Position numbers and translations under genes: made by a program
From: Clostridiales bacterium
GTDB lineage: Bacteria; Bacillota; Clostridia; Lachnospirales; UBA12420
Direction: 5' to 3'
NCBI GenBank assembly: GCA_003452395.1
Contig: DMOI01000041.1
Coordinates: 8,362 to 72,361 of the forward strand
DNA: 64,000 nt
Part shown: in pieces, positions 49,130 through 64,000 of the stretch
Position numbering within the stretch: the first letter of the stretch is position 1
How the letters are laid out: each line of letters starts with the position of its first letter
Notes under the pieces: generated by a model
The model's input: the letters and a program-made list of their open reading frames with translations, nothing else
Told to the model about the DNA's origin: nothing
Databases searched by the model: none

Positions 49130-49930
49130 CTAATATTCTTTATCAGTTGTATAGTTTGATGCGCTCTTTTTAAATGTATAGCTTCTGTCATGTTGTTCTT
49201 TGTATGCATCATATGTTGTATCTACTATAACCCATTTACCATTTATATAAACTTCATTCCAAGCATGATATACATCTGTTACCTTTGAGTATCCTTTAAT
49301 AAGTTTTGCTTTTACATCAACACTTCTTAACATTGCTGCATATAATGATGAGTAATCATAACAAATACCTTTTTCATCTTTTAATACTTCATCTATGTCT
49401 GGTACATAATTTGAACTTATTGTTTTAATTTTTTTGCTATCATATTTTATGTTTTTTACTATGTATTTGTATATTGCTTTTGCTTTTTCTTCATCATTAT
49501 CTGCATCTTTTGTTAACTTTTTAGCTAGCTTTACTGCTGCACTATCTTCATCGTATTTTATATTTTGTACTGATTTAGTATATATACTTTCTTCATCTTC
49601 TATTTGCACATTAATTGTATCTTCAAATACCCTTCTATATTTTGTTCCATATACATTTTCATAAACTACTAATGTATATTCACCATCTCCCATTTGTAAA
49701 GAAAATTCTTCATATCTATCTGTGTTTTTCAAACTATAATAATCCTTTTTTGAATCCTTTTCTATCATAAATTTAGCTTTGTCTACATCTTCATTTTCAT
49801 ACAAAACTTTTACTATTCCTTCATCTGCATCCGTAGTATCAACTTCAACTGTTCTTTCGGAATATGCTATAGTTGTAAAAGCTATCATAAACACAAGAAT
49901 AGCAACTAGTGAACCAACTTTTTTAAACAT
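49130..49930 (-). CDS. secreted transglutaminase-like cysteine protease-fold protein
   Basis: Signal peptide MFKKVGSLVAILVFMIAFTTIAYS. Putative Cys-His-Asp triad: GICYDYSSLYAAMLR ... YHAWNEVYINGKWVIVDTT. Start set to the second ATG (49930) because AAGGAG abuts the first ATG at 49939. Confidence 0.75.
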   Translation of the reverse strand: MFKKVGSLVAILVFMIAFTTIAYSERTVEVDTTDADEGIVKVLYENEDVDKAKFMIEKDSKKDYYSLKNTDRYEEFSLQMGDGEYTLVVYENVYGTKYRRVFEDTINVQIEDEESIYTKSVQNIKYDEDSAAVKLAKKLTKDADNDEEKAKAIYKYIVKNIKYDSKKIKTISSNYVPDIDEVLKDEKGICYDYSSLYAAMLRSVDVKAKLIKGYSKVTDVYHAWNEVYINGKWVIVDTTYDAYKEQHDRSYTFKKSASNYTTDKEY

Positions 49931-49940
49931 ACCAACCATC

Positions 49941-50032
49941 TCCTTCGATAACTGGCTACCACCTGCTTATGCAGAAGGCCCTTTAGTTTTGCGTCCTTAT
50001 CTTTCGATAAGTTTGCCATTTTCGGGTGAAAA
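49941..50032 (-). promoter_or_regulatory. c-di-GMP-I (GEMM-I) riboswitch
   Basis: Minus strand reads AAAAUGGCAAACUUAUCGAAAGAUAAGGACGCAAAACUAAAGGGCCUUCUGCAUAAGCAGGUGGUAGCCAGUUAUCGAAGGAG. It shows the GGCAAAC, GAAA tetraloop hairpin, GGACGCAAA, GGGCC and GGUAGCC blocks of GEMM-I. The 3' end runs into the SD. Confidence 0.8.
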
Positions 50033-54667: not shown

Positions 54668-55264
54668 TTAACCCAAAGAGAGACCTCCAATCGTACTTCC
54701 ATAACTATTTTCAGTTGTTGTTTTACTTGGGATTACTATATCTTCAATACGATATATTATTCTAGTAAGCTCTTCAATCATTATATCATTATGATAATTT
54801 GCTACTGGATCTATTGTTTTTTCTTTTTCTAAGATTTCTATACTATCTGCCATAAAGCGAACTACGTCCTCTATTCCAGTTTGATTTGTACCACTTCTAA
54901 TTCCTATTTCAGAATTCAACCCATTATAAATACTTTCATCGAAACTTACTGTTTCCCCAAACATAATCAAACCACAATTCGGCTTGCTAAATCTGTCATC
55001 TTGCCTTTGTTCATCTTTAAATAAAATTGTACCATCATCCAGTGTTTCCCTACTCGTCTTTTTATGTACCTTCCCTTGATTTTTGCTTTTATCTGTTTCC
55101 CTTGATTTATTATTTGCCCTCGCTTTATGCCTCATATCAGTCAATTCACCTTCGCAGGTCCCTTTTATCATCTCTAAGATTTCTTTTTTACTATCCTTCC
55201 TCAAACTATCTCCGGCATATCCAATGAAATTTAAAACTGCAATACAATTATCATTATACCACAT
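54668..55264 (-). CDS. hypothetical protein (reading frame stays open 64 codons upstream of the first ATG)
   Basis: 198 aa from ATG 55264, with no motif recognised. The same frame is stop-free up to 55456 (KCRFIEKQKKLAEAKTYTLKGGIKVTPQYIVIGDKRFVIDKNIRDWLEERIINEGFENIEVDKQ-M...) but has no ATG, GTG or TTG there. Confidence 0.4.
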   Translation of the reverse strand: MWYNDNCIAVLNFIGYAGDSLRKDSKKEILEMIKGTCEGELTDMRHKARANNKSRETDKSKNQGKVHKKTSRETLDDGTILFKDEQRQDDRFSKPNCGLIMFGETVSFDESIYNGLNSEIGIRSGTNQTGIEDVVRFMADSIEILEKEKTIDPVANYHNDIMIEELTRIIYRIEDIVIPSKTTTENSYGSTIGGLSLG

Positions 55265-55469: not shown

Positions 55470-55991
55470 TCAATGACCAATTTTTTGTTCTTCTAATTCT
55501 TTTAATTCACTTTCAGAAAGATGCTTATAAATATCCCCGTTTACGCCAAATTCCTGTATATATACTTTAATGTTTTCTATTCCTAGACTTTCGATTTCCT
55601 TTTTGTCAAGCTTCTTAAGTTTTTCAGCTATCCACTCAAAAATATGCCTATTTATACGAATAACCCTATCTTCAATTATTATATCTTGGCACCCTTGTAT
55701 ATTATTTCCTATTTGCCACTGGGCTTGAATTATTTGTGTACCGTCCCCTAACTTATAAATAACCTTAGAATTATTTTCATTGGATTTCGTTACAACTTCC
55801 TTTTCTTTTATCCCACTTTCTTGTTCTTTTAATCGTACATATTTCTCAATATCTTCTATTGCTAAAGATTCCTGATTACCTTTTTTATCAATATTCGACA
55901 TTTGATTAATATTCTCTATCACCTTAATGCCCGCATTTATTCTCTGATCTCGTATTTTTCCGTGTTCCTTATTTCTAGTACGTCTAGCCAT
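55470..55991 (-). CDS. hypothetical protein with a basic N-terminus
   Basis: 173 aa. Strong SD (AAGGAG, 8 nt, ATG). No motif recognised. Confidence 0.5.
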   Translation of the reverse strand: MARRTRNKEHGKIRDQRINAGIKVIENINQMSNIDKKGNQESLAIEDIEKYVRLKEQESGIKEKEVVTKSNENNSKVIYKLGDGTQIIQAQWQIGNNIQGCQDIIIEDRVIRINRHIFEWIAEKLKKLDKKEIESLGIENIKVYIQEFGVNGDIYKHLSESELKELEEQKIGH

Positions 55992-56604: not shown

Positions 56605-58257
56605 TTACAATATATCTACTTCACCATTCATAGTTTCGCTTATAATTGGGTTTGCATCAAAGTCATATAACTTTGCGTTCTCAATACTAACTCCCGTACT
56701 TCCTTTTTCTACATCTTTTATTTTAAAAGTAATTATAAATAAACTTCCTGCTTTAGTAATCGGTTTTGTACCTGCCCACGTTGCTCTAATTTTATTTACT
56801 GTATATTTTTCATTAGATATTGCTAACATATCTGACATCAGTTCTCCTGAGACTACACTTATAACTTCCAACTTGTTGTTGTCATAAACTAAATTAAAAC
56901 TACCTCCGCAAACCTGTGATTTTTCAGTCAATTGAACATTCACTATTACGTTTGCTTCAGTTTTCCCGCTAACTCTACCCACAGTAATTGTTGGTGCTGA
57001 TAATGTTTCTGGTACTATTGATGTTTCTGGTATAGTTATTGTTATTATGTTACTTGCATCCCTGTTAAAATATAAATTTGAATTAAAATAACTCGTATAT
57101 TTATAGGTCTTACCTGATTCTGCAGTAGTATCTATATAAAAATTCTCATCTTTATCTATCGTTCCAGCTAAGCAAATGCCATCTCTATATATATCTGTTG
57201 TATAATCTTTTTTATCCCATGTTAATTTTACTGTTCCATCATCCAAAAGAATTCCTTTAAAATTCGATGGTGCTTCTAAATGAACAGTTTTATAGTCATT
57301 TGCTGTACTTGTCATTTTAACTACTTTTTCTGGTTCTGTACCCATAGTCCAAAACTTCCATGTCCCATCAGTTTGTTTTCTAATAGTCATATACCTGCTA
57401 TTTATTCCTTTTTCCCATCTCGTGCTTTGTGGATTAATTGCATCTATTTTTACACTATACTCAATTCTATTGTTTTTATCAATCTCATTAACATATACTT
57501 CATATGATTTTAAAACATAATTTTGATCAGCTTCGAAACATTCTTTTAATGCCGCTTCAGCTTTAACTTCATCTTCACTTTTTACTATACCATTATCAAC
57601 CAGATTTGTTGTTTCATCTAAATTAACCGCAACTACTTTTTCACCTTTTGCCTTGTATAGTAGCACACATGCCTCAGCCCTTGTCAAAGTCTTTTGCGCA
57701 TTGAAGTTTGTACCATCGCCTTCCATTATTTTATTTTTCACTGCTATAGCTACATATCCTCTTAAATCCATTGATATATCATTTTTATCTGCAAATTTAT
57801 CTAATAACGTTAGGTCTGGAGTTTCTTTCAACAACCCCTTTGCTCTTACGATTGCTACTGCCATATCTTCCCTTACTGCATTCTCGCTACCCCTAAAAGA
57901 CATTGTGCTTCCAATTTTATACCCCGTAAGGTATTGTTTTGCTGCCTCTACATATGTATATGCCCATTCTGATTTAGTTACATCGCTGAATGTTTGTGTT
58001 GTTTCAGTATCTTTTGGCAAGTTTAATGCCAAAACTAATATTTTTGCAAATTGTTCTCTCGTTACTGGTTCTTCTGGTCTAAACGTACCATCTTCAAATC
58101 CTTTTATTACTCCCTTATTAACCATATCACTTACTGCATTATATGCCCAGTGGCTACTTGGTAAATCCTCAAAACCTACTACTTGTGCATTTGATACTGG
58201 TACTATTTGTACCATCATTGCTAAACACATTATAAAACTGATAATTCTTTTTACCAC
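56605..58257 (-). CDS. cell-surface protein: signal peptide, 3 SLH domains, FN3-like module, C-terminal cohesin-like domain
   Basis: 550 aa. SLH repeats (FEDLPSSHWAYNAVSDMVNKGVIKGFEDGTFRP, FSDVTKSEWAY..., FADKNDIS...). C-terminal GGSFNLVYDNNKLEVISVVSGELM...GSLFIITFKIKD fits the cohesin pattern. Confidence 0.75.
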   Translation of the reverse strand: MVKRIISFIMCLAMMVQIVPVSNAQVVGFEDLPSSHWAYNAVSDMVNKGVIKGFEDGTFRPEEPVTREQFAKILVLALNLPKDTETTQTFSDVTKSEWAYTYVEAAKQYLTGYKIGSTMSFRGSENAVREDMAVAIVRAKGLLKETPDLTLLDKFADKNDISMDLRGYVAIAVKNKIMEGDGTNFNAQKTLTRAEACVLLYKAKGEKVVAVNLDETTNLVDNGIVKSEDEVKAEAALKECFEADQNYVLKSYEVYVNEIDKNNRIEYSVKIDAINPQSTRWEKGINSRYMTIRKQTDGTWKFWTMGTEPEKVVKMTSTANDYKTVHLEAPSNFKGILLDDGTVKLTWDKKDYTTDIYRDGICLAGTIDKDENFYIDTTAESGKTYKYTSYFNSNLYFNRDASNIITITIPETSIVPETLSAPTITVGRVSGKTEANVIVNVQLTEKSQVCGGSFNLVYDNNKLEVISVVSGELMSDMLAISNEKYTVNKIRATWAGTKPITKAGSLFIITFKIKDVEKGSTGVSIENAKLYDFDANPIISETMNGEVDIL

Positions 58258-58514: not shown

Positions 58515-58657
58515 AACATTCGGGGTCAGGCATGAATTTTAGAGTTTCTTTTATAGGTTTCCACTACTGAAATAGCATATTCTGTTAGGTTGATGTCTCT
58601 ATTTTTAATCTTAGATACCATAGTTGCATCTATGTTTAACTTGTTACTTATACTTAT
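58515..58657. repeat. direct repeat A (fragment copy of the 3' part of the HTH gene at 63.7 kb)
   Basis: 143 nt. Differs from 63656-63797 by two substitutions and one extra T by my alignment. In this copy the indel breaks the HTH reading frame. Confidence 0.9.
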
Positions 58658-58898
58658 GCTGTATACCTTGCATTATTTTAGCTGATTTCGTTTTTACTAC
58701 CTCTATAAGCATATGTGCATGATTATCCATGATGCAGTATGCATAAAATTTAAATTCATACTTTTCTTTATAGTTTGTAATTATATCTAAGTAATGCATT
58801 TTGTCTTGCATATCCTTTAAAATATATTCTCCATTATTACCTCTAACCATTATGTGATACAATGCACCTTCGTAATGTATCCTTTGTTTTCTTGCCAC
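58644..58898 (-). pseudogene. truncated IS200/RAYT-like HUH (Y1) transposase
   Basis: 84 aa from a GTG start. ARKQRIHYEGALYHIMVRGNN...YAYCIMDNHAHMLIE carries the HUH motif (HAH). The C-terminal half with the catalytic Tyr is missing, and the ORF ends where repeat A begins. Confidence 0.7.
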
Positions 58899-59046
58899 TA
58901 TTCCTCACCCCTTGACATTACAATATCATGTGCTTGTGCAATTATCAAGATTGTTCTCTTTAAAATCCTAAAATTCATGCCTTATCCCATTTCTTTTTTC
59001 TTTATCCGCCTAATTTAAAGCCGACTTGTTTGTTTCTATAAATTAC

Positions 59047-59075
59047 TTGACATTTTATATAATACATTGTATAAT
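59047..59075 (+). promoter_or_regulatory. consensus sigma-A promoter for the histidine-phosphatase-fold gene
   Basis: TTGACA (59047-59052), exactly 17 nt, TATAAT (59070-59075). SD GGAGG lies before ATG 59125. Confidence 0.7.
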
Positions 59076-59124
59076 TATGGAAATTGTTATGATATATTCA
59101 CATACTTACTAGTGGAGGTACAAT

Positions 59125-59958
59125 ATGAAGAAAATAATTTTTTTCAGGCATGGTGAGTCTTATAAGAATGCAACTGATATAACTGGCGGAAACGGAGCAC
59201 CATTAACACCTAATGGTAAAAATCAAGTCAATGACATTTCGACTAGGTTAAATACTATACTAGAAGATAGTCAAGAAAAAATAAATATTTATATGTCATG
59301 TAATCGTGTACAAGTACAAGAAACAGCTAACATCATTAAAGAAAACCTAGGAATTACTGATCAAATTAATATGTCATCGGATTATAGACCTTGGAAATTG
59401 GGAGTGTTTGATTCACTAAGTGCAGAACTAAGAAAATCCAGATACCCTGAAGCTTATGAAAAATCAAGATTATGGTTATCTGGGAATTTAGATGTGAAAA
59501 GTGCACGAGCTCCAGGTATGGAAGATATCGTAACATATTATGATATGATTAATGGGTTTATTGAGCAATTACCTGATAATGAGATTTATATTATGGTTGG
59601 AGTTAGGTCAGACTTAGAAGCCTTTATTAATATATTTAATAACGGTTCTCCTCGCGAAGAAATGAAATATAAGCATTACGACACTACATATTGTGAAGAA
59701 ATGGTTTATGATGAGAGAAATGGTAATTATTCTTTAAATTGTGACCAGAGTTCACCAGAAATGATCCTAAAAATTGTACAAGTTACCTCTGACCAAAAAG
59801 TTTCAGAAACTATTGAAAGTATCTCATCTCCTAATCCCGATTTGGATAATAAGAATATTGATGATGATTTTTGTAATCTTCTTGCAGATGGTTGTCTCAA
59901 TGCTTCCGATAATACTTTTGAATTAGTTTCCTCTGAAGAAGACGAGAAGATTTTATAA
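59125..59958 (+). CDS. histidine phosphatase superfamily (PGM-like branch) protein, divergent, with an acidic C-terminal extension
   Basis: 277 aa. IIFFRHGESYKN carries the RHG motif. The region where the second catalytic His (SHG) is expected reads MVGVRSDLEAF. About 80 extra C-terminal residues are D/E/S-rich. Confidence 0.65.
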   Translation: MKKIIFFRHGESYKNATDITGGNGAPLTPNGKNQVNDISTRLNTILEDSQEKINIYMSCNRVQVQETANIIKENLGITDQINMSSDYRPWKLGVFDSLSAELRKSRYPEAYEKSRLWLSGNLDVKSARAPGMEDIVTYYDMINGFIEQLPDNEIYIMVGVRSDLEAFINIFNNGSPREEMKYKHYDTTYCEEMVYDERNGNYSLNCDQSSPEMILKIVQVTSDQKVSETIESISSPNPDLDNKNIDDDFCNLLADGCLNASDNTFELVSSEEDEKIL

Positions 59959-59975
59959 TACCTACGTTTTATAAA

Positions 59976-60021
59976 TTGCAAATAAGAACAGCATTATTAT
60001 ATTTGCTGTTTTTATTTGCAA
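59976..60021. terminator. bidirectional terminator between convergent genes
   Basis: TTGCAAATAAGAACAGCA-loop-TGCTGTTTTTATTTGCAA, an 18-bp stem with one mismatch. Confidence 0.8.
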
Positions 60022-60118
60022 TTTTAAATTAAATCTTCTTGTTTTTCATTATATTCTATCTCTATATTCTTAATCTCTATTTTAAATTTTTTCCATCTTA
60101 TATTTTCCTGTAGATGAA

Positions 60119-60952
60119 TCATTTATACAATAATATTGCCAATAATTGAGTAATGTTTTTCATCTTAGTTCTATTTACTTCTATATAATCTTGATGTTTA
60201 TATACCACTTGACATTCTTCTTTCTTTTCTACAAACAATTCTTCATTAATTATATTACTGCTTAAACATATTCCTTTTTCCCTTACTTTACTAATTAAAT
60301 TACAATCCTCTAAAATGTTATCAACATTACTTTCTATATGTATATTTTTTATTTTATTTAATTGCAACTTATTATAGTAATATTCTGCAACAAAGTCTCT
60401 ATACGGCAAGTCTGCTTTATTCAGCTTTAAACTTTTAAAATTTTTTATAAACTCAGAAAAATACTTTTCTCCTTCTTCACTATCTTCATGTACTATTATC
60501 TCAAATTCTATAAATTCTCCTACGTTTAAAATTGAATCAATAAGAATATTATATGTAATCTCATTTTCTGTTTTGCTATAATAATCCCTTATCTTATCTA
60601 CAACTACATATGAATGATATCCAAAAACTTTAAACAATTCAACTATGTTTTCATATGACTTTACTTCTGATATAATATTAGACTCTTTCTTTGCATAGAA
60701 ACTCGAAAATATCTCTGATTTACCTTTGTACGTTATTTCAAGTTCCTTGTCATCTATTGTCCTAATCCTCAAGCAGGTCCTATTTTTTATAAATTCGCCT
60801 GCTAAATCAGTAAAGTATTCATCCTTTTCGTTTATTCTTTTTATAAACTTAAATCCTTCTTTTTCTATTTTATTTTTTATTATCTCAGTATCACTATCAC
60901 ACAAAAACTTCTCTTCGATTTCTACAACTGTTCTATGGTCAGATTTTTTCAT
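60119..60952 (-). CDS. CYTH-domain protein (class IV adenylyl cyclase / triphosphate tunnel metalloenzyme-like) with a C-terminal extension
   Basis: VEIEEKF (ExExK), CLRIR, TYKGK and NVGEFIEFEI follow the CyaB/CYTH pattern. Start set at ATG 60952 (SD GGAGGA 8 nt upstream, 1 nt after the upstream TGA); the ORF is open to 60994. Confidence 0.75.
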   Translation of the reverse strand: MKKSDHRTVVEIEEKFLCDSDTEIIKNKIEKEGFKFIKRINEKDEYFTDLAGEFIKNRTCLRIRTIDDKELEITYKGKSEIFSSFYAKKESNIISEVKSYENIVELFKVFGYHSYVVVDKIRDYYSKTENEITYNILIDSILNVGEFIEFEIIVHEDSEEGEKYFSEFIKNFKSLKLNKADLPYRDFVAEYYYNKLQLNKIKNIHIESNVDNILEDCNLISKVREKGICLSSNIINEELFVEKKEECQVVYKHQDYIEVNRTKMKNITQLLAILLYK

Positions 60953-60953
60953 A

Positions 60954-63494
60954 TCAGCATTCCTCCAGCTCTTTAATGTTTTTATGTTCATCATAAATTT
61001 TTATGAGAATTTCAGCTAATTCATCAAAAACATCAACTTCAATACCCTCAAAACTATCTTTAGTAGCTAATGTATTTTCTAGGACACATACACATTTTAA
61101 TCCTGCTCTTTTCGCGGCTTCTATACCTCTTTTTGAATCTTCAAAAACTATACATTTTTCTTTAGAAGTTTTCATTTTATTTAAAGCTTTCAAGTAACTT
61201 TCAGCATCCGGTTTATACTTTTCCACATCGTCTCTAGAAATTATTACATCAAATACATCATCTGCATCTAATTTGTTAAGAATATTTTTTACAAACTCTT
61301 TTTTTGAAGATGTTACCAATGCTAACTCCAACCCTTTTTCTTTTAATTTCTTGATAAGCCTGATATTTTTCAAACCTTCCGTCTCGCTGGTTATCACATC
61401 TATTCTGTCTTTATATTCTTCATATACCTTATCCATCATTTCTTTTTTATCAACTTTTTCATCTATCTCTTTTCTTGCTTTTAAGTATACCATTAGTTTT
61501 TCATTGTTCTCTAACTCATATTTTATGTAATCTTCTTTCTCTATTTGAACACTATAATCCCTTCCTAAAATAAATTGCCACGATTCAAAAAATACTTTTT
61601 CTGATGGCACTATAGTCCCATCTAAATCAAATAGTATTCCATTAATATTCTTTAAATCTCCTAACTTCCCTATCTGTTTTCTTGATATAATATCTCTGTA
61701 CGGTTCACATGCAGGTATTAAGTTCAATTCTTTAAATTGAGACATAAATTCATTAAACTTATCTTCTAACTTTTGCTTATCATCAGATATAATCTCAAAT
61801 TCAACAAAACTTCCAATATTCTTTATTTCGTCAAAATAAATATTATACTCATATTCCTTTGTACTTTTAGTATAAATTATCCTTTCTTTGTTTATTTTTA
61901 CATACTTATAAAAATTCAACATTTCAAGTATCTTCTTTGTTTTCTCTAGTCCTTCTTTATTTATTGAAACGTTAAACTCTCTCTTTGAATATTGATTGCT
62001 ATAGTCTTCGGATTCTCCTTTATATGTGAGTATAAAGTCTTTTGATTCATTCTTCCTAATTCGCAAGCATGTTCTATTATCAATAAATTCTCCTTCACTA
62101 TCTGTAAAGTATAAATCCTCTTCTTTTCCCTTTGTTTTATAAATATATCCAATTTTCTTAATATACTGTAATATTTCATCTTTTAGCTTATCGTCAAGTT
62201 CGAACTTTCCTTGTTTAACAAAAACTTTATTTTCATTGTTTTTTATACTTATTTTATGCTTCTTTACGATTTCAGCAATCATATATCTTCCTTGAATATT
62301 TGTAAAATAGTTATAATTTATTTCTGCCTCATTTTCAAATAGATTATTTAATAACTCTTCAAATGCTTCTTTACTTAAATATGCTCCACCAACATCCCCA
62401 AGAAACCCCATATACCAATACTTATTTAAAACATATGGGAAGCCTCCCATAATTTTCGGATCCTCTATTTCAACGATAACTATTTTTTTAGATACTTCAA
62501 ACATTTTCCTTAACATACCTATCAGATGGTCTTTACCAGGCATATGATGAAGCGTATTACTACAATATGAAACATCAAATATGCTCTCTTTAAAAGGAAA
62601 ATAAACTGCATTATGATTTGTAAATAGTACTTTTGGGTTTTTGATTTTACTGCTTAGGATTTCTATTTGACTCCAACTTATATCATTTCCTATCACATAT
62701 TTTGTAAGATTTAAATCTGCCAATTTTGATAAAAAGGAATCTTCCCCGCATGATACATCAACTATTCTCTCAGCAGAACCTATAGCCTTATTTATAATCA
62801 TATTGAATTCATTTTTTCTTTTTCTCTTATCTGTAAGAATATACTTTTTTATTATATTGTTATGCAGCAAATACCTGCTTTTGTAGTTTTCATTAGTTGA
62901 AATTTCATCATCTTGAAAATCTGATTTTTGAGTATTTATAAATTTTTTAAATCTTTTTTCAAAAATTCTAACAACTTCTCTATTTGCAAATCTATTTATA
63001 CTTTCTAATTCTTCTTCAGTAACTTCAACAAAACTACCTGTAAAATTCCTTGTATTGATATCCTCTTTATTTCTAATTCTCGCTATAAACGCAAGCCCAT
63101 TATGTTCATATTCTTGTGAATCATAAGTGAATTTATTTTTTATATATGCAATAGGTTCTACCTCTCCTATTTTTATTTCTTTCGATATCTTCTCTGATGT
63201 TCTTTTAATTGCATTATGAATATTTTCACTCTTATATATACTTCCACCCGGAACAGACCAAAACAACTTATCTTGCATATTCTTTTCCAAATAAACTTTT
63301 CCTTCATTATCATATATAAGAAGAAGTATAAAGTATTTTCTTTGTTTTACATAATCATATAGTCTTTTAGAAACCTCTCCCTTATAAGTAATGTCATTTA
63401 AGTCATATATTTCTCTATAAACTTCAAAAGCAAACCTTGTTTCCCCTACACTTTCTTTAAATATTTTATCACACAAAATATCCACGTTTCCCAT
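60954..63494 (-). CDS. four-domain fusion: Nudix-like / class I SAM methyltransferase / CYTH / HAD-IA hydrolase
   Basis: 846 aa, with four recognisable modules. Residues ~52-178 are a Nudix fold with a degenerate box (GGSIYKSENIHNAIKRTSEKI). Residues ~225-345 are a methyltransferase (IVDVSCGEDS, GNDIS, FDVSYCSNTLHHM). Residues ~423-603 are CYTH (CLRIR, TYKGE, IGSFVEFEI) with ExExK replaced by VKQGK. Residues ~617-815 are HAD (FDLDGT, LVTSS, KPD, FEDSKRG). Confidence 0.75.
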   Translation of the reverse strand: MGNVDILCDKIFKESVGETRFAFEVYREIYDLNDITYKGEVSKRLYDYVKQRKYFILLLIYDNEGKVYLEKNMQDKLFWSVPGGSIYKSENIHNAIKRTSEKISKEIKIGEVEPIAYIKNKFTYDSQEYEHNGLAFIARIRNKEDINTRNFTGSFVEVTEEELESINRFANREVVRIFEKRFKKFINTQKSDFQDDEISTNENYKSRYLLHNNIIKKYILTDKRKRKNEFNMIINKAIGSAERIVDVSCGEDSFLSKLADLNLTKYVIGNDISWSQIEILSSKIKNPKVLFTNHNAVYFPFKESIFDVSYCSNTLHHMPGKDHLIGMLRKMFEVSKKIVIVEIEDPKIMGGFPYVLNKYWYMGFLGDVGGAYLSKEAFEELLNNLFENEAEINYNYFTNIQGRYMIAEIVKKHKISIKNNENKVFVKQGKFELDDKLKDEILQYIKKIGYIYKTKGKEEDLYFTDSEGEFIDNRTCLRIRKNESKDFILTYKGESEDYSNQYSKREFNVSINKEGLEKTKKILEMLNFYKYVKINKERIIYTKSTKEYEYNIYFDEIKNIGSFVEFEIISDDKQKLEDKFNEFMSQFKELNLIPACEPYRDIISRKQIGKLGDLKNINGILFDLDGTIVPSEKVFFESWQFILGRDYSVQIEKEDYIKYELENNEKLMVYLKARKEIDEKVDKKEMMDKVYEEYKDRIDVITSETEGLKNIRLIKKLKEKGLELALVTSSKKEFVKNILNKLDADDVFDVIISRDDVEKYKPDAESYLKALNKMKTSKEKCIVFEDSKRGIEAAKRAGLKCVCVLENTLATKDSFEGIEVDVFDELAEILIKIYDEHKNIKELEEC

Positions 63495-63638
63495 GCTTGC
63501 CTCCCCTAAAATATCACACTTAAATCATGATTAATTGAGTGTTTATTCACTTTTCATATCTTACCATATTATAATTTTTTCTGCAATAAAAAAACATAAA
63601 TTACAAGAGAAACTGAAAATTGCAAATTATATCAAATT

Positions 63639-64000
63639 TTATTTTCTTATAGAAAAACATTCGGGGTCAGGCATGAATTTTAGAATTTCTTTATAGGTTT
63701 CCACTACTGAAACAGCATATTCTGTTAGGTTGATGTCTCTATTTTTAATCTTAGATACCATAGTTGCATCTATGTTTAACTTGTTACTTATACTTATATT
63801 GTTTATTTCACAATTTGTCTCTGATAAAATAATAATAGCTTTTCTTATATCAGAAATATTTCGTTTTTTTGTCTTCTTTACTATTTCTTCAACCTCTACC
63901 ATTTCTTGTTTTGAAACCTCTTCAATTAAATCTTCTATATTTATCAGCTTTTTACTACATCTCAGTTTAAACCTTTGTGCTTCTTCTATTTTATATTCCT
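63639..64000 (-). CDS. helix-turn-helix protein (5' end may lie beyond the window)
   Basis: The track gives 87 aa from ATG 63902, but the frame is open to nt 64000 (...EYKIEEAQRFKLRCSKKLINIEDLIEEVSKQE-MVEVEE...). ISNKLNIDATMVSKIKNRD looks like an HTH. Confidence 0.5.
   Translation of the reverse strand, partial: EYKIEEAQRFKLRCSKKLINIEDLIEEVSKQEMVEVEEIVKKTKKRNISDIRKAIIILSETNCEINNISISNKLNIDATMVSKIKNRDINLTEYAVSVVETYKEILKFMPDPECFSIRK
63656..63797. repeat. direct repeat B (inside the intact HTH gene)
   Basis: 142 nt, ~98% identical to 58515-58657. Confidence 0.9.

Follow-up and report, generated by a model that had tools for sequence, protein, structure and literature searches.

A two-gene pseudo-Nudix, methyltransferase, CYTH, and HAD module beside an orphan gene and transposase debris in an accessory region of a Clostridiales genome

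Triphosphate tunnel metalloenzymes (TTMs) such as SaTTM (Saci_0718), PH1819, and CthTTM are stand-alone proteins of ~150–200 aa. Triphosphatases of this kind carry the signature ExExK + RxR + ExE, while the class IV adenylate cyclases (CyaB, YpAC-IV), which share their fold, are told apart from the TTM phosphatases by an HF before the ExExK, the loss of the central Arg, and the change of ExE to ExA (PMC8233210). Other described proteins that come into the comparison are bacterial Hen1 of the Pnkp/Hen1 RNA repair system; the NrtR and AraR regulators and the C-terminal domain of MutY, in which a Nudix fold with a degenerate box is joined to a DNA-binding or glycosylase domain; the HAD-IA phosphatases (beta-phosphoglucomutase family, TM_1254, PpaX/BT2127, and the nucleotidase YjjG); and the prokaryotic viperins (pVip) with their nucleoside monophosphate (NMP) kinases. 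Here we analyzed a 64,000-nt stretch of Clostridiales DNA (the window), the right end of which encodes an 846-aa fusion of a Nudix-like domain, a methyltransferase, a CYTH domain, and a HAD phosphatase, followed by a second CYTH gene that we call CYTH2. We found that this block consists of three unrelated items that adjoin one another in an accessory region scarred by recombination, namely a two-gene module, an orphan histidine-phosphatase-like gene, and the remains of a RAYT-like Y1 transposase in two decayed copies.

The module is made up of two genes on the minus strand, and its conserved unit (59973–63598) runs promoter, fusion, CYTH2, terminator. The fusion gene (60954–63494, minus strand, from the open reading frame [ORF] call) is preceded by a 5′ leader and promoter region (63495–63598, minus strand) that blastn showed to be conserved in a sister genome, and is followed by CYTH2 (60119–60952, minus strand; 277 aa), whose ATG at 60952 lies 1 nt past the TGA of the fusion, with a GGAGGAA ribosome-binding site upstream; CYTH2 is probably translationally coupled to the fusion. 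Between CYTH2 and the histidine-phosphatase-like gene that converges on it lies an inverted repeat (59973–60024) with 21-nt arms that are 95% complementary, partly conserved in the sister genome, and likely a bidirectional terminator. An earlier sequence-only reading of the window had seen here a cassette of four genes, with a helix-turn-helix (HTH) gene and the histidine phosphatase as its other members. All of the long ORFs on its list are in the window, and our ORF, Pfam, and repeat analyses recovered the fusion of 846 aa, the CYTH gene that begins 1 nt past it, the promoter, the Y1 stump, and the direct repeats that it described. By that reading's own condition of co-occurrence in other genomes, the four-gene cassette itself had to be given up, because the HTH is the tail of a transposase and the histidine-phosphatase gene does not co-occur with the module in the sister genome or in ~135 related loci. 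An identical fusion protein is recorded on seven contigs (the parent contig comes from GCA_001797235.1, a Clostridiales metagenome-assembled genome [MAG]), and independent assemblies from NCBI, JGI, and Logan all show the order fusion, CYTH2, histidine phosphatase; the genes are thus truly adjacent, although this adjacency is specific to the lineage.

Full-length homologues of the fusion share 38–44% identity with it, and public databases name it either “HAD-IA hydrolase” or “class IV adenylate cyclase,” annotations that are probably misleading. Its first domain (aa 20–195; 62910–63437, minus strand), delimited by alignment, AlphaFold2 (AF2) modeling, and Foldseek, has a Nudix fold: the AF2 model reached a mean per-residue confidence (pLDDT) of 86.5 and matched Ap4A hydrolase, NudI, and RppH with a Foldseek probability of 1.0, MutY was also among the fold matches, and the top sequence-profile match in the PDB was AraR from Bacteroides, a non-catalytic Nudix regulator. 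The Nudix domain claimed in the sequence-only reading thus stands as a fold, whereas the Pfam NUDIX score is 17.7 bits against a cut-off of 21.1 and the catalytic glutamates are missing. In the Nudix box (GX5EX7REUXEEXGU), G84, E90, and R98 are retained, but the REx2EE positions read T99, K102, and I103, and the family consensus over this catalytic stretch is R-I-x-x-x-I; with the box degenerate in this way, the decapping-type Nudix proposed earlier is not supported. We infer that the domain is a ligand-binding pseudo-enzyme domain, comparable to those of NrtR, AraR, and MutY but, unlike them, fused to enzymes.

The second domain (aa 196–418; 62241–62909, minus strand) is a class I methyltransferase dependent on S-adenosylmethionine (SAM), as assigned from Pfam Methyltransf_25/11, AF2, and Foldseek. 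Methyltransf_25 matched residues 244–336 (E = 7e-11), the AF2 model (pLDDT 90.1) gave more than 1000 methyltransferase fold matches, and the domain shows the Rossmann-type fold, a motif I of the form IDVSCG(D/E), and an invariant N-D as the acidic position that closes beta-2. All seven of its best Foldseek matches were bacterial Hen1 methyltransferase domains, those of CthHen1 and AvaHen1 (E = 5e-11 to 3e-10; TM score 0.71–0.73 on the target). In Hen1, the metal ligands are contributed by E-x-x-E-H in a short helix after beta-4 and by a His after beta-5 (PMC10781085). In the window protein an invariant N-T-L-H-H occupies this helix, and no fourth ligand was identified; the protein differs from Hen1 also in its sequence, with only 13–14% identity, and in having no Pnkp or ligase partner.

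At the C-terminus, the HAD-IA phosphatase domain (aa 612–840; 60975–61661, minus strand) matched Pfam HAD_2 over residues 620–804 (E = 8.8e-37). Motifs I–IV (DLDGT, TSS, K, and EDS) are intact, in the contexts LFDLDGT, LVTSS, KYKPD, and FEDSKRG, and the domain is of the capped IA type with a C1 cap. Its PDB matches included TM_1254, beta-phosphoglucomutase (beta-PGM), and the pyrophosphatase BT2127. While it shares all four motifs and the cap with the known HAD-IA enzymes, it scores below every equivalog cut-off and, unlike them, is fused C-terminally to a TTM domain.

Two CYTH domains are thus encoded by the module, and TTMs were the best matches of both (SaTTM, PH1819, and CthTTM; PDB 2een, E = 1.3e-20, and 7ns8, E = 4e-20). 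The CYTH domain of the fusion (aa 430–606; 61677–62207, minus strand; Pfam CYTH over residues 439–592, E = 1e-14) retains RxR (CLRIR) and ExE (FVEFE) but has VKQGK in place of ExExK, whereas CYTH2 (Pfam CYTH, E = 7e-11) carries the complete TTM signature, with ExExK (EIEEK), RxR, and ExE all intact, followed by a tail of ~80 aa. When we aligned 44 CYTH domains of the family, ExExK was present in every one except those of the window fusion and its sister, both of which read VKQGK. Having lost ExExK, the fusion's CYTH domain is predicted to be non-catalytic. Both arrangements depart from the stand-alone build of the known TTMs, one domain being embedded in a four-domain protein and the other extended by its tail.

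The earlier proposal of a cyclase-like CYTH generator could draw on the shared fold and on TIGR00318 (cyaB), whose cut-off of 57.95 bits the fusion exceeds with 64.5 bits, but none of the three class IV determinants is present. At the position of the cyclase HFxxxxExExK, CYTH2 reads DHRTVVEIEEK and the fusion ENKVFVKQGK, and HF occurs there in no family member; the central Arg of xRxR, which cyclases replace with a small neutral residue, is kept as CLRIR in both window domains and family-wide; and both Glu of ExE remain, in FVEFE (fusion) and FIEFE (CYTH2). Since there is no HFx4ExExK and both the central Arg and the second Glu of ExE are kept, the two domains fit the triphosphatase type rather than the cyclase type, as far as activity can be predicted from such residues, and the protein is therefore not to be filed as a cyclase.

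To describe how these domains are distributed between genes, we write N for the Nudix-like domain, M for the methyltransferase, C for CYTH, H for HAD, h for a decayed HAD, x for an unassigned N-terminal region, and square brackets for a single gene. Among the related loci, CYTH2 as a separate gene is confined to the window's lineage. A recent tandem duplication of the fusion's CYTH domain was considered as its origin and rejected, since CYTH2 is nearer to the CYTH domains of other lineages' C-H genes (43–52% identity) than to that of the adjacent fusion (41%); the neighbor-joining tree was long-branched. The tail of CYTH2 ends in ...ITQLLAILLYK, which resembles the C-terminus of the family's HAD domains, holds no HAD motif, and may be what is left of a decayed HAD domain. 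The lineage would then have the state [N-M-C(dead)-H(live)] followed by [C(live)-h(decayed)], with the predicted activities divided between the two genes. An independent two-CYTH operon elsewhere in the family (L026:9788–13252) is arranged [x-M][C-h][C-H], and its second CYTH domain is missing the first Glu of ExE, an apparent decay that parallels the reciprocal decay proposed for the window.

The sister genome, the MAG Clostridiales bacterium GWD2_32_19 (locus L004), delimits the module. The blastn block that it shares with the window (60088–63598) has 89.7% nucleotide identity, and with the terminator region, which is also shared, the common stretch extends over 59984–63598 in all; homology begins ~115 bp upstream of the fusion's ATG and stops after CYTH2. 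The flanks of L004 are unlike those of the window, with EamA and polysaccharide deacetylase gene fragments upstream and an AAA_14/DUF4143 ATPase downstream. There, too, the module lies between direct repeats of ~97% identity (L004:8536–9537 and L004:15208–17214), which are made up of pieces of the DUF4143 ATPase gene that lies downstream and of the EamA and polysaccharide deacetylase genes, and which are possibly an assembly artifact. The ratio of nonsynonymous to synonymous substitution (dN/dS) between the two genomes was 0.069 for the fusion overall, 0.053–0.083 for its domains (0.083 for its CYTH domain), and 0.11 for CYTH2 (0.10 for the TTM part and 0.14 for the tail). Every part of the module, the predictedly dead CYTH domain included, is under purifying selection (dN/dS 0.05–0.14). 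Separately, the JGI sample 3300025011 holds both the window's genome type (L002) and the sister type (L064), with fusions that are 92% identical and lie in different genomic contexts.

The fusion belongs to a rare protein family without a characterized member. Forty-eight protein clusters matched it, most of them full-length at 825–855 aa, with a second group of ~570 aa that is devoid of the HAD domain and in which Pfam NUDIX passes its cut-off. A scan of 185,579 species genomes yielded 56 family loci, all in MAGs, and a metagenome scan a further 80. The loci come from candidate phyla radiation (CPR) bacteria and DPANN archaea as well as from gut Bacilli, Clostridia, and Bacteroidota; the lineages include Patescibacteria (Saccharibacteria among them), SR1/Absconditabacteria, one Aenigmatarchaeota MAG, RF39-like Bacilli/Mollicutes, Clostridia, Muribaculaceae, and others. 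Searched with a profile of the N domain, a set of 1.84 billion proteins yielded 141 representatives (E ≤ 1e-10), most of them ~400 aa long and corresponding to the N-M core. By domain hidden Markov models, the family's architectures are N-M-C-H, [N-M][C-H], [N][M][C-H], [x-M][C-h][H], [x-M][C-h], N-M-C, [N-M][C], and [N-M]. Because the four domains are found fused or split into adjacent genes across lineages, we take them to be functionally linked, and this fusion and fission pattern is good evidence, at the level of gene organization, that they work together.

Comparison with described systems was largely negative. PADLOC-DB 2.0 gave no significant match for the fusion, CYTH2, the histidine-phosphatase-like protein, the transposase stump, or the core proteins of the relatives; scans of all window ORFs with PADLOC and PHROGs returned nothing specific; and in Pfam and NCBIfam the fusion had matches at the level of domains only, TIGR00318 cyaB excepted. 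The phage, plasmid, and IMG/VR collections held no family members, giving at most generic HAD matches. We found no description in the literature of the family, the domain combination, TTM-methyltransferase fusions, or links to viperin or GreA. The view of the sequence-only reading that this is no described pathway, toxin-antitoxin, or defense system therefore held in the libraries searched, where the fusion matched none.

We surveyed the genomic neighbors of the relatives by unbiased clustering of adjacent ORFs and by scanning 150 flanking genes with Pfam and PADLOC, and counted them over 92 non-redundant loci sorted by architecture. The recurrent partners were divergent Tmk-like (Tmk/CMPK2-like) NMP kinases, Gre-family proteins, and, in Bacilli loci, LysR regulators; Ham1, canonical Nudix, Cmk, phosphoribosyltransferase, and Vut_1 proteins occurred occasionally. 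Gre-like genes flanked 17 of the 36 N-M-C loci and 15 of the 23 with N-M only, Tmk-like genes 14 and 7, respectively, and the gene order of these partners is shuffled between loci. Among the 33 HAD-containing loci, by comparison, there were no Gre-like and three Tmk-like neighbors, and the window, a member of this group, has neither within its 64 kb. The family-wide neighbors are in keeping with the nucleotide-centered character that had been proposed for the block; they tie the family to nucleotides, and possibly to transcription, but are not directly transferable to the window copy. Defense genes were not clearly enriched among the 150 neighbors, and there was no clear defense-island context.

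Neither type of partner appears to be an ordinary housekeeping gene. The Gre proteins linked to the module score below the GreA cut-offs and have G-x-x-W-H-D-N at the coiled-coil tip in place of GDLxENxEY. This WHDN paralogue stands beside HAD-less relatives in L033 (11763–12275), L095 (2750–3226), and ~35 other loci (e.g., L030:8813–9349), and since L033 and L095 carry a canonical-tip GreA as well (L033:540–1091; L095:11716–12240), we rejected a housekeeping identity for it. (The tip alignment had E. coli GreA as its reference; the canonical motif can also be read in the L033 and L095 sequences themselves.) For the Tmk-like kinases the same rejection is partly supported: they fall below the dTMP kinase cut-off and match VakA, PADLOC's model of viperin-associated kinases, with E values down to 4e-23, as well as PDC-M51B (1e-33). 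One operon (L023:4932–11769), repeated in the same order in L092, encodes a Tmk-like kinase, a 722-aa protein, a fusion of a class I methyltransferase with a viperin-like radical SAM enzyme, a TTM, an N-M protein (pseudo-Nudix-methyltransferase), and a Gre-like protein. Radical-SAM motif hits in L049 were also considered as viperins and rejected, the proteins being SkfB/SPASM-like. From their gene content, the HAD-less relatives reveal a conserved and undescribed trio, predicted to consist of the WHDN-tip Gre paralogue, a viperin-type kinase, and the Nudix-methyltransferase-TTM protein.

Taken together with the domain assignments, these observations led us to a reading of the window to which we give about an even chance, namely that it holds a two-gene, four-activity ribonucleotide-processing module, with its triphosphatase provided in trans, beside an orphan gene and transposase debris. 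The module would be a multi-step enzyme whose substrate is a phosphoester resembling a ribonucleotide. Its Nudix domain, itself non-catalytic, would hold the nucleotide moiety; the Hen1-like SAM methyltransferase would methylate the nucleotide, most plausibly at a ribose hydroxyl; the TTM, provided in trans by CYTH2, would cleave a triphosphate; and the C1-capped HAD-IA phosphatase would strip the remaining phosphate or pyrophosphate.

Several points weigh against this proposal. Both the substrate and the direction of the reactions are drawn from folds and neighbors only, which fix neither the order of the steps nor their purpose, be it making, salvage, or destruction. In the Foldseek comparison, Hen1 comes out ahead of NodS, AtmM/RebM, ChlM, and Coq5 by about one order of magnitude only, and the sequence-profile matches of the methyltransferase are generic. 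The invariant N-T-L-H-H was entertained as a metal site of the Hen1 type but dropped as evidence, an “evlhhv” or NTLHH-like motif being generic for Methyltransf_11. The HAD domain lies equally near to sugar-phosphate phosphatases or pyrophosphatases and to nucleotidases. The match of the CYTH2 tail to the HAD profile, on which its origin as a decayed HAD rests, is weak. Finally, the nucleotide-related neighbors belong mostly to HAD-less relatives that are ~28–30% identical to the window protein; the HAD-containing subfamily, to which the window copy belongs, is mostly solitary.

Among the alternatives, the one that we rate highest, though we consider it unlikely, places the family at the heart of a system that targets transcription by means of nucleotide analogues, of which the window module would be a self-contained, HAD-bearing variant. 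In such a system the methyltransferase would produce a ribose-O-methylated, chain-terminating or inhibitory nucleotide that the TTM and HAD domains control or dismantle, and in the HAD-less relatives the viperin-type NMP kinase would feed in the substrate while the Gre paralogue protects the host RNA polymerase. The frequent Gre-like and Tmk-like flanks of the N-M-C and N-M loci, the kinase matches to VakA and PDC-M51B, the distinctive WHDN tip alongside a canonical GreA in L033 and L095, the methyltransferase-viperin fusion and TTM in one operon in L023 and L092, and the patchy spread of the family across phyla all speak for it, as does the reported linkage of viperins to kinases and their fusion to a “triphosphatase or cyclase domain” (bioRxiv 10.1101/2023.09.13.557418). 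The pattern is broken, however, by the HAD-containing members, with a Gre paralogue in 0 of 33 and a kinase in 3 of 33, and by the window itself, where the module is without any partner of the kinase, viperin, or radical SAM kind and neither a Gre-like nor a Tmk-like gene lies within the 64 kb. Unlike pVip, whose chemistry is radical dehydration, the family would combine methylation with phosphohydrolysis. The viperin link amounts to two loci of identical arrangement, probably of one lineage; the core proteins had no PADLOC match, phage, plasmid, and viral-contig copies were not found, defense genes were not clearly enriched in the 150 neighbors, and LysR and housekeeping neighbors suggest metabolism in Bacilli. 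A related reading that concerns the family as a whole, in which the pseudo-Nudix-methyltransferase(-TTM-HAD) proteins would be the core of an undescribed nucleotide-analogue system at RNA polymerase, with the WHDN Gre shielding or reprogramming the polymerase, seems to us rather unlikely. The window module may or may not have a role in defense, and for the wider family a function in conflict is a serious, if unproven, possibility.

Another alternative, which we regard as quite unlikely, is RNA-end healing or modification in the manner of Pnkp/Hen1, in which the methyltransferase would 2′-O-methylate 3′ ends, the TTM would act as a 5′-triphosphatase and the HAD as a 3′-phosphatase, and the Nudix-like domain would grip the RNA end as RppH does. 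Hen1 domains and the Pnkp1/Rnl/Hen1 complex were indeed among the structural matches, RppH was among the best Nudix-fold matches, the HAD region matches a PHROG family annotated as polynucleotide kinase, and P-loop kinases and Gre-like factors adjoin the relatives. Nevertheless, no ligase or guanylyltransferase was present in any of the loci, the adjoining kinases are of the NMP-kinase type, and the CYTH domains most closely resemble SaTTM and PH1819, which are small-molecule TTMs, rather than Cet1. The HAD domain is moreover of the capped IA type, and capped HAD forms usually exclude macromolecular substrates.

We are more doubtful still of a small-molecule pathway, either housekeeping or regulated, that is not centered on nucleotides but on, for instance, a sugar phosphate, thiamine triphosphate, or tripolyphosphate (PPPi) and pyrophosphate (PPi), with the TTM cleaving PPPi and a PpaX/BT2127-like HAD clearing inhibitory PPi. 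SaTTM is product-inhibited by PPi (PMC8233210), which would suit this scheme, as would the HAD matches to sugar phosphatases of the beta-PGM family and to the pyrophosphatases PpaX and BT2127, the LysR regulators that adjoin the operon in 14 flanks, and the location of L060 among pta-ackA and asnB. Such a pathway would, however, leave unexplained the invariant coupling of the Nudix fold to the methyltransferase, which is the core of the family; the aromatic residue of the ThTPase-type W/YxRxR is missing (CLRIR), and the family, far from being universal, has a rare and patchy occurrence. Least of all do we credit a single conflict system of HTH, fusion, CYTH paralogue, and histidine phosphatase, in which a cyclase-like CYTH makes a nucleotide second messenger and the Nudix, HAD, and histidine-phosphatase parts turn over that messenger or the nucleotide pool. 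In its favor are the adjacency of the genes in an accessory region and the TIGR00318 “cyaB” score of the fusion, 64.5 bits against a cut-off of 57.95. What speaks against it, and contradicts it in three respects, is that the HTH ORF belongs to the tail of a transposase, the histidine phosphatase is unlinked to the module at any other locus, the CYTH domains are of the phosphatase type, the Nudix catalytic residues are gone, and PADLOC returned zero matches.

The remaining items of the block lie outside the conserved unit. The histidine-phosphatase-like gene (59125–59958, plus strand; 277 aa), which is convergent to CYTH2, has a sigma-70-type promoter at 59047–59075 (plus strand) of the form TTGACA-17-TATAAT, with 12/12 consensus matches. 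The fold named in the sequence-only reading held in part: Pfam His_Phos_1 matched residues 4–119, but this covers only the N-terminal half of the profile, stopping at position 109 of 194. RHG and the second Arg are present, the second His expected in the C-terminal proton-donor region of branch 1 appears to be Arg (in GVRSD), the C-terminal half is unmatched by Pfam, and the tail is acidic and of low complexity. The GC skew changes sign within the gene. A word-indexed search of 5.8 billion proteins returned no homologue other than the protein itself, and the gene is missing from L004 and the ~135 related loci; by these comparisons it is, for all its strong promoter, evidently not a conserved partner of the module.

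The two ORFs at the edges of the block are pseudogenes derived from a RAYT-like Y1 (HUH) transposase family and, as judged from their sequences, would not be active transposases. Copy A (58644–58898, minus strand) preserves the N-terminal 84 aa (Y1_Tnp, E = 8e-10; REP_Tyr_transpos positions 1–81) and has suffered an internal deletion, so that past residue ~79 the sequence continues, in a different frame, with the final ~50 codons of the gene. Copy B is represented by its 3′ part (63639–64000, minus strand): the supposed HTH gene of 87 aa (63639–63902) is the tail of this N-terminally truncated pseudogene, its frame remaining open up to the window end and continuing beyond it to give, on the parent contig, an ORF of 248 aa that starts with MDNHAHMLIEV, the HUH motif, matches REP_Tyr_transpos positions 55–136, and ends in a DnaA_C-like HTH. 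The copies are 84% identical over their overlap. They share with RAYT and IS200-type Y1 transposases the Y1_Tnp and REP_Tyr_transpos matches, the HUH motif (DNHAHM), and inverted REP-like motifs, but differ from them in the truncation of both copies, the sub-equivalog scores, and the DnaA_C-like HTH extension. Neither has an intact Y1 domain of ~150 aa with HUH and the catalytic Tyr: copy A holds HUH but stops at residue 84, and copy B begins at HUH without an N-terminus.

With the HTH gene and the stump recognized as parts of one transposase gene, the 143-nt direct repeats that bracket the block are explained as the 3′ ends of the two decayed copies. Each repeat (58515–58657 for copy A, 63656–63797 for copy B) includes a REP-like motif, and the two are identical at 140 of 142 positions, with one 1-nt gap. 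The REP-like hairpin motif GGGRTMAGGCATGAATTTTAG occurs three times in the window, against an expectation of 0 by chance, and an inverted copy at 58963–58988 flanks transposase copy A together with that at 58522–58547. At the very end of the parent contig, ~0.8–1.6 kb to the right of the window, lies an ExeA/AAA_22-type ATPase (L001:9–812), which also matches a PEP-CTERM-system ATPase model below its cut-off; its position points to a repetitive mobile element at which the assembly broke. The location of the block between transposase remnants, and of the module at a different locus in the sister genome, supports its earlier description as accessory.

To the left, the block adjoins a gene (56605–58257, minus strand) for a 550-aa SLH/cohesin protein of the cell-surface scaffold type, in which two SLH domains are combined with a cohesin domain at the C-terminus, and beyond it lie two hypothetical genes without Pfam matches on record (54668–55264 and 55470–55991). 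Further left we noted a c-di-GMP-I-GGC riboswitch (49943–50026, minus strand; 62.7 bits against a gathering score of 59) with a 269-aa transglutaminase-like ORF (49130–49939, minus strand) directly downstream.

The fusion is an entry point to a rare protein family, found in uncultured microbes, that has no characterized member. If the trio of the HAD-less relatives turns out to form a system that works through nucleotide analogues or is directed at RNA polymerase, it would be of real interest for work on phage defense and on transcription. In the lineage of the window, the module offers a natural dissection of the enzyme, in which the triphosphatase has apparently been outsourced to a separate gene while the domain predicted to be dead is still held under selection.

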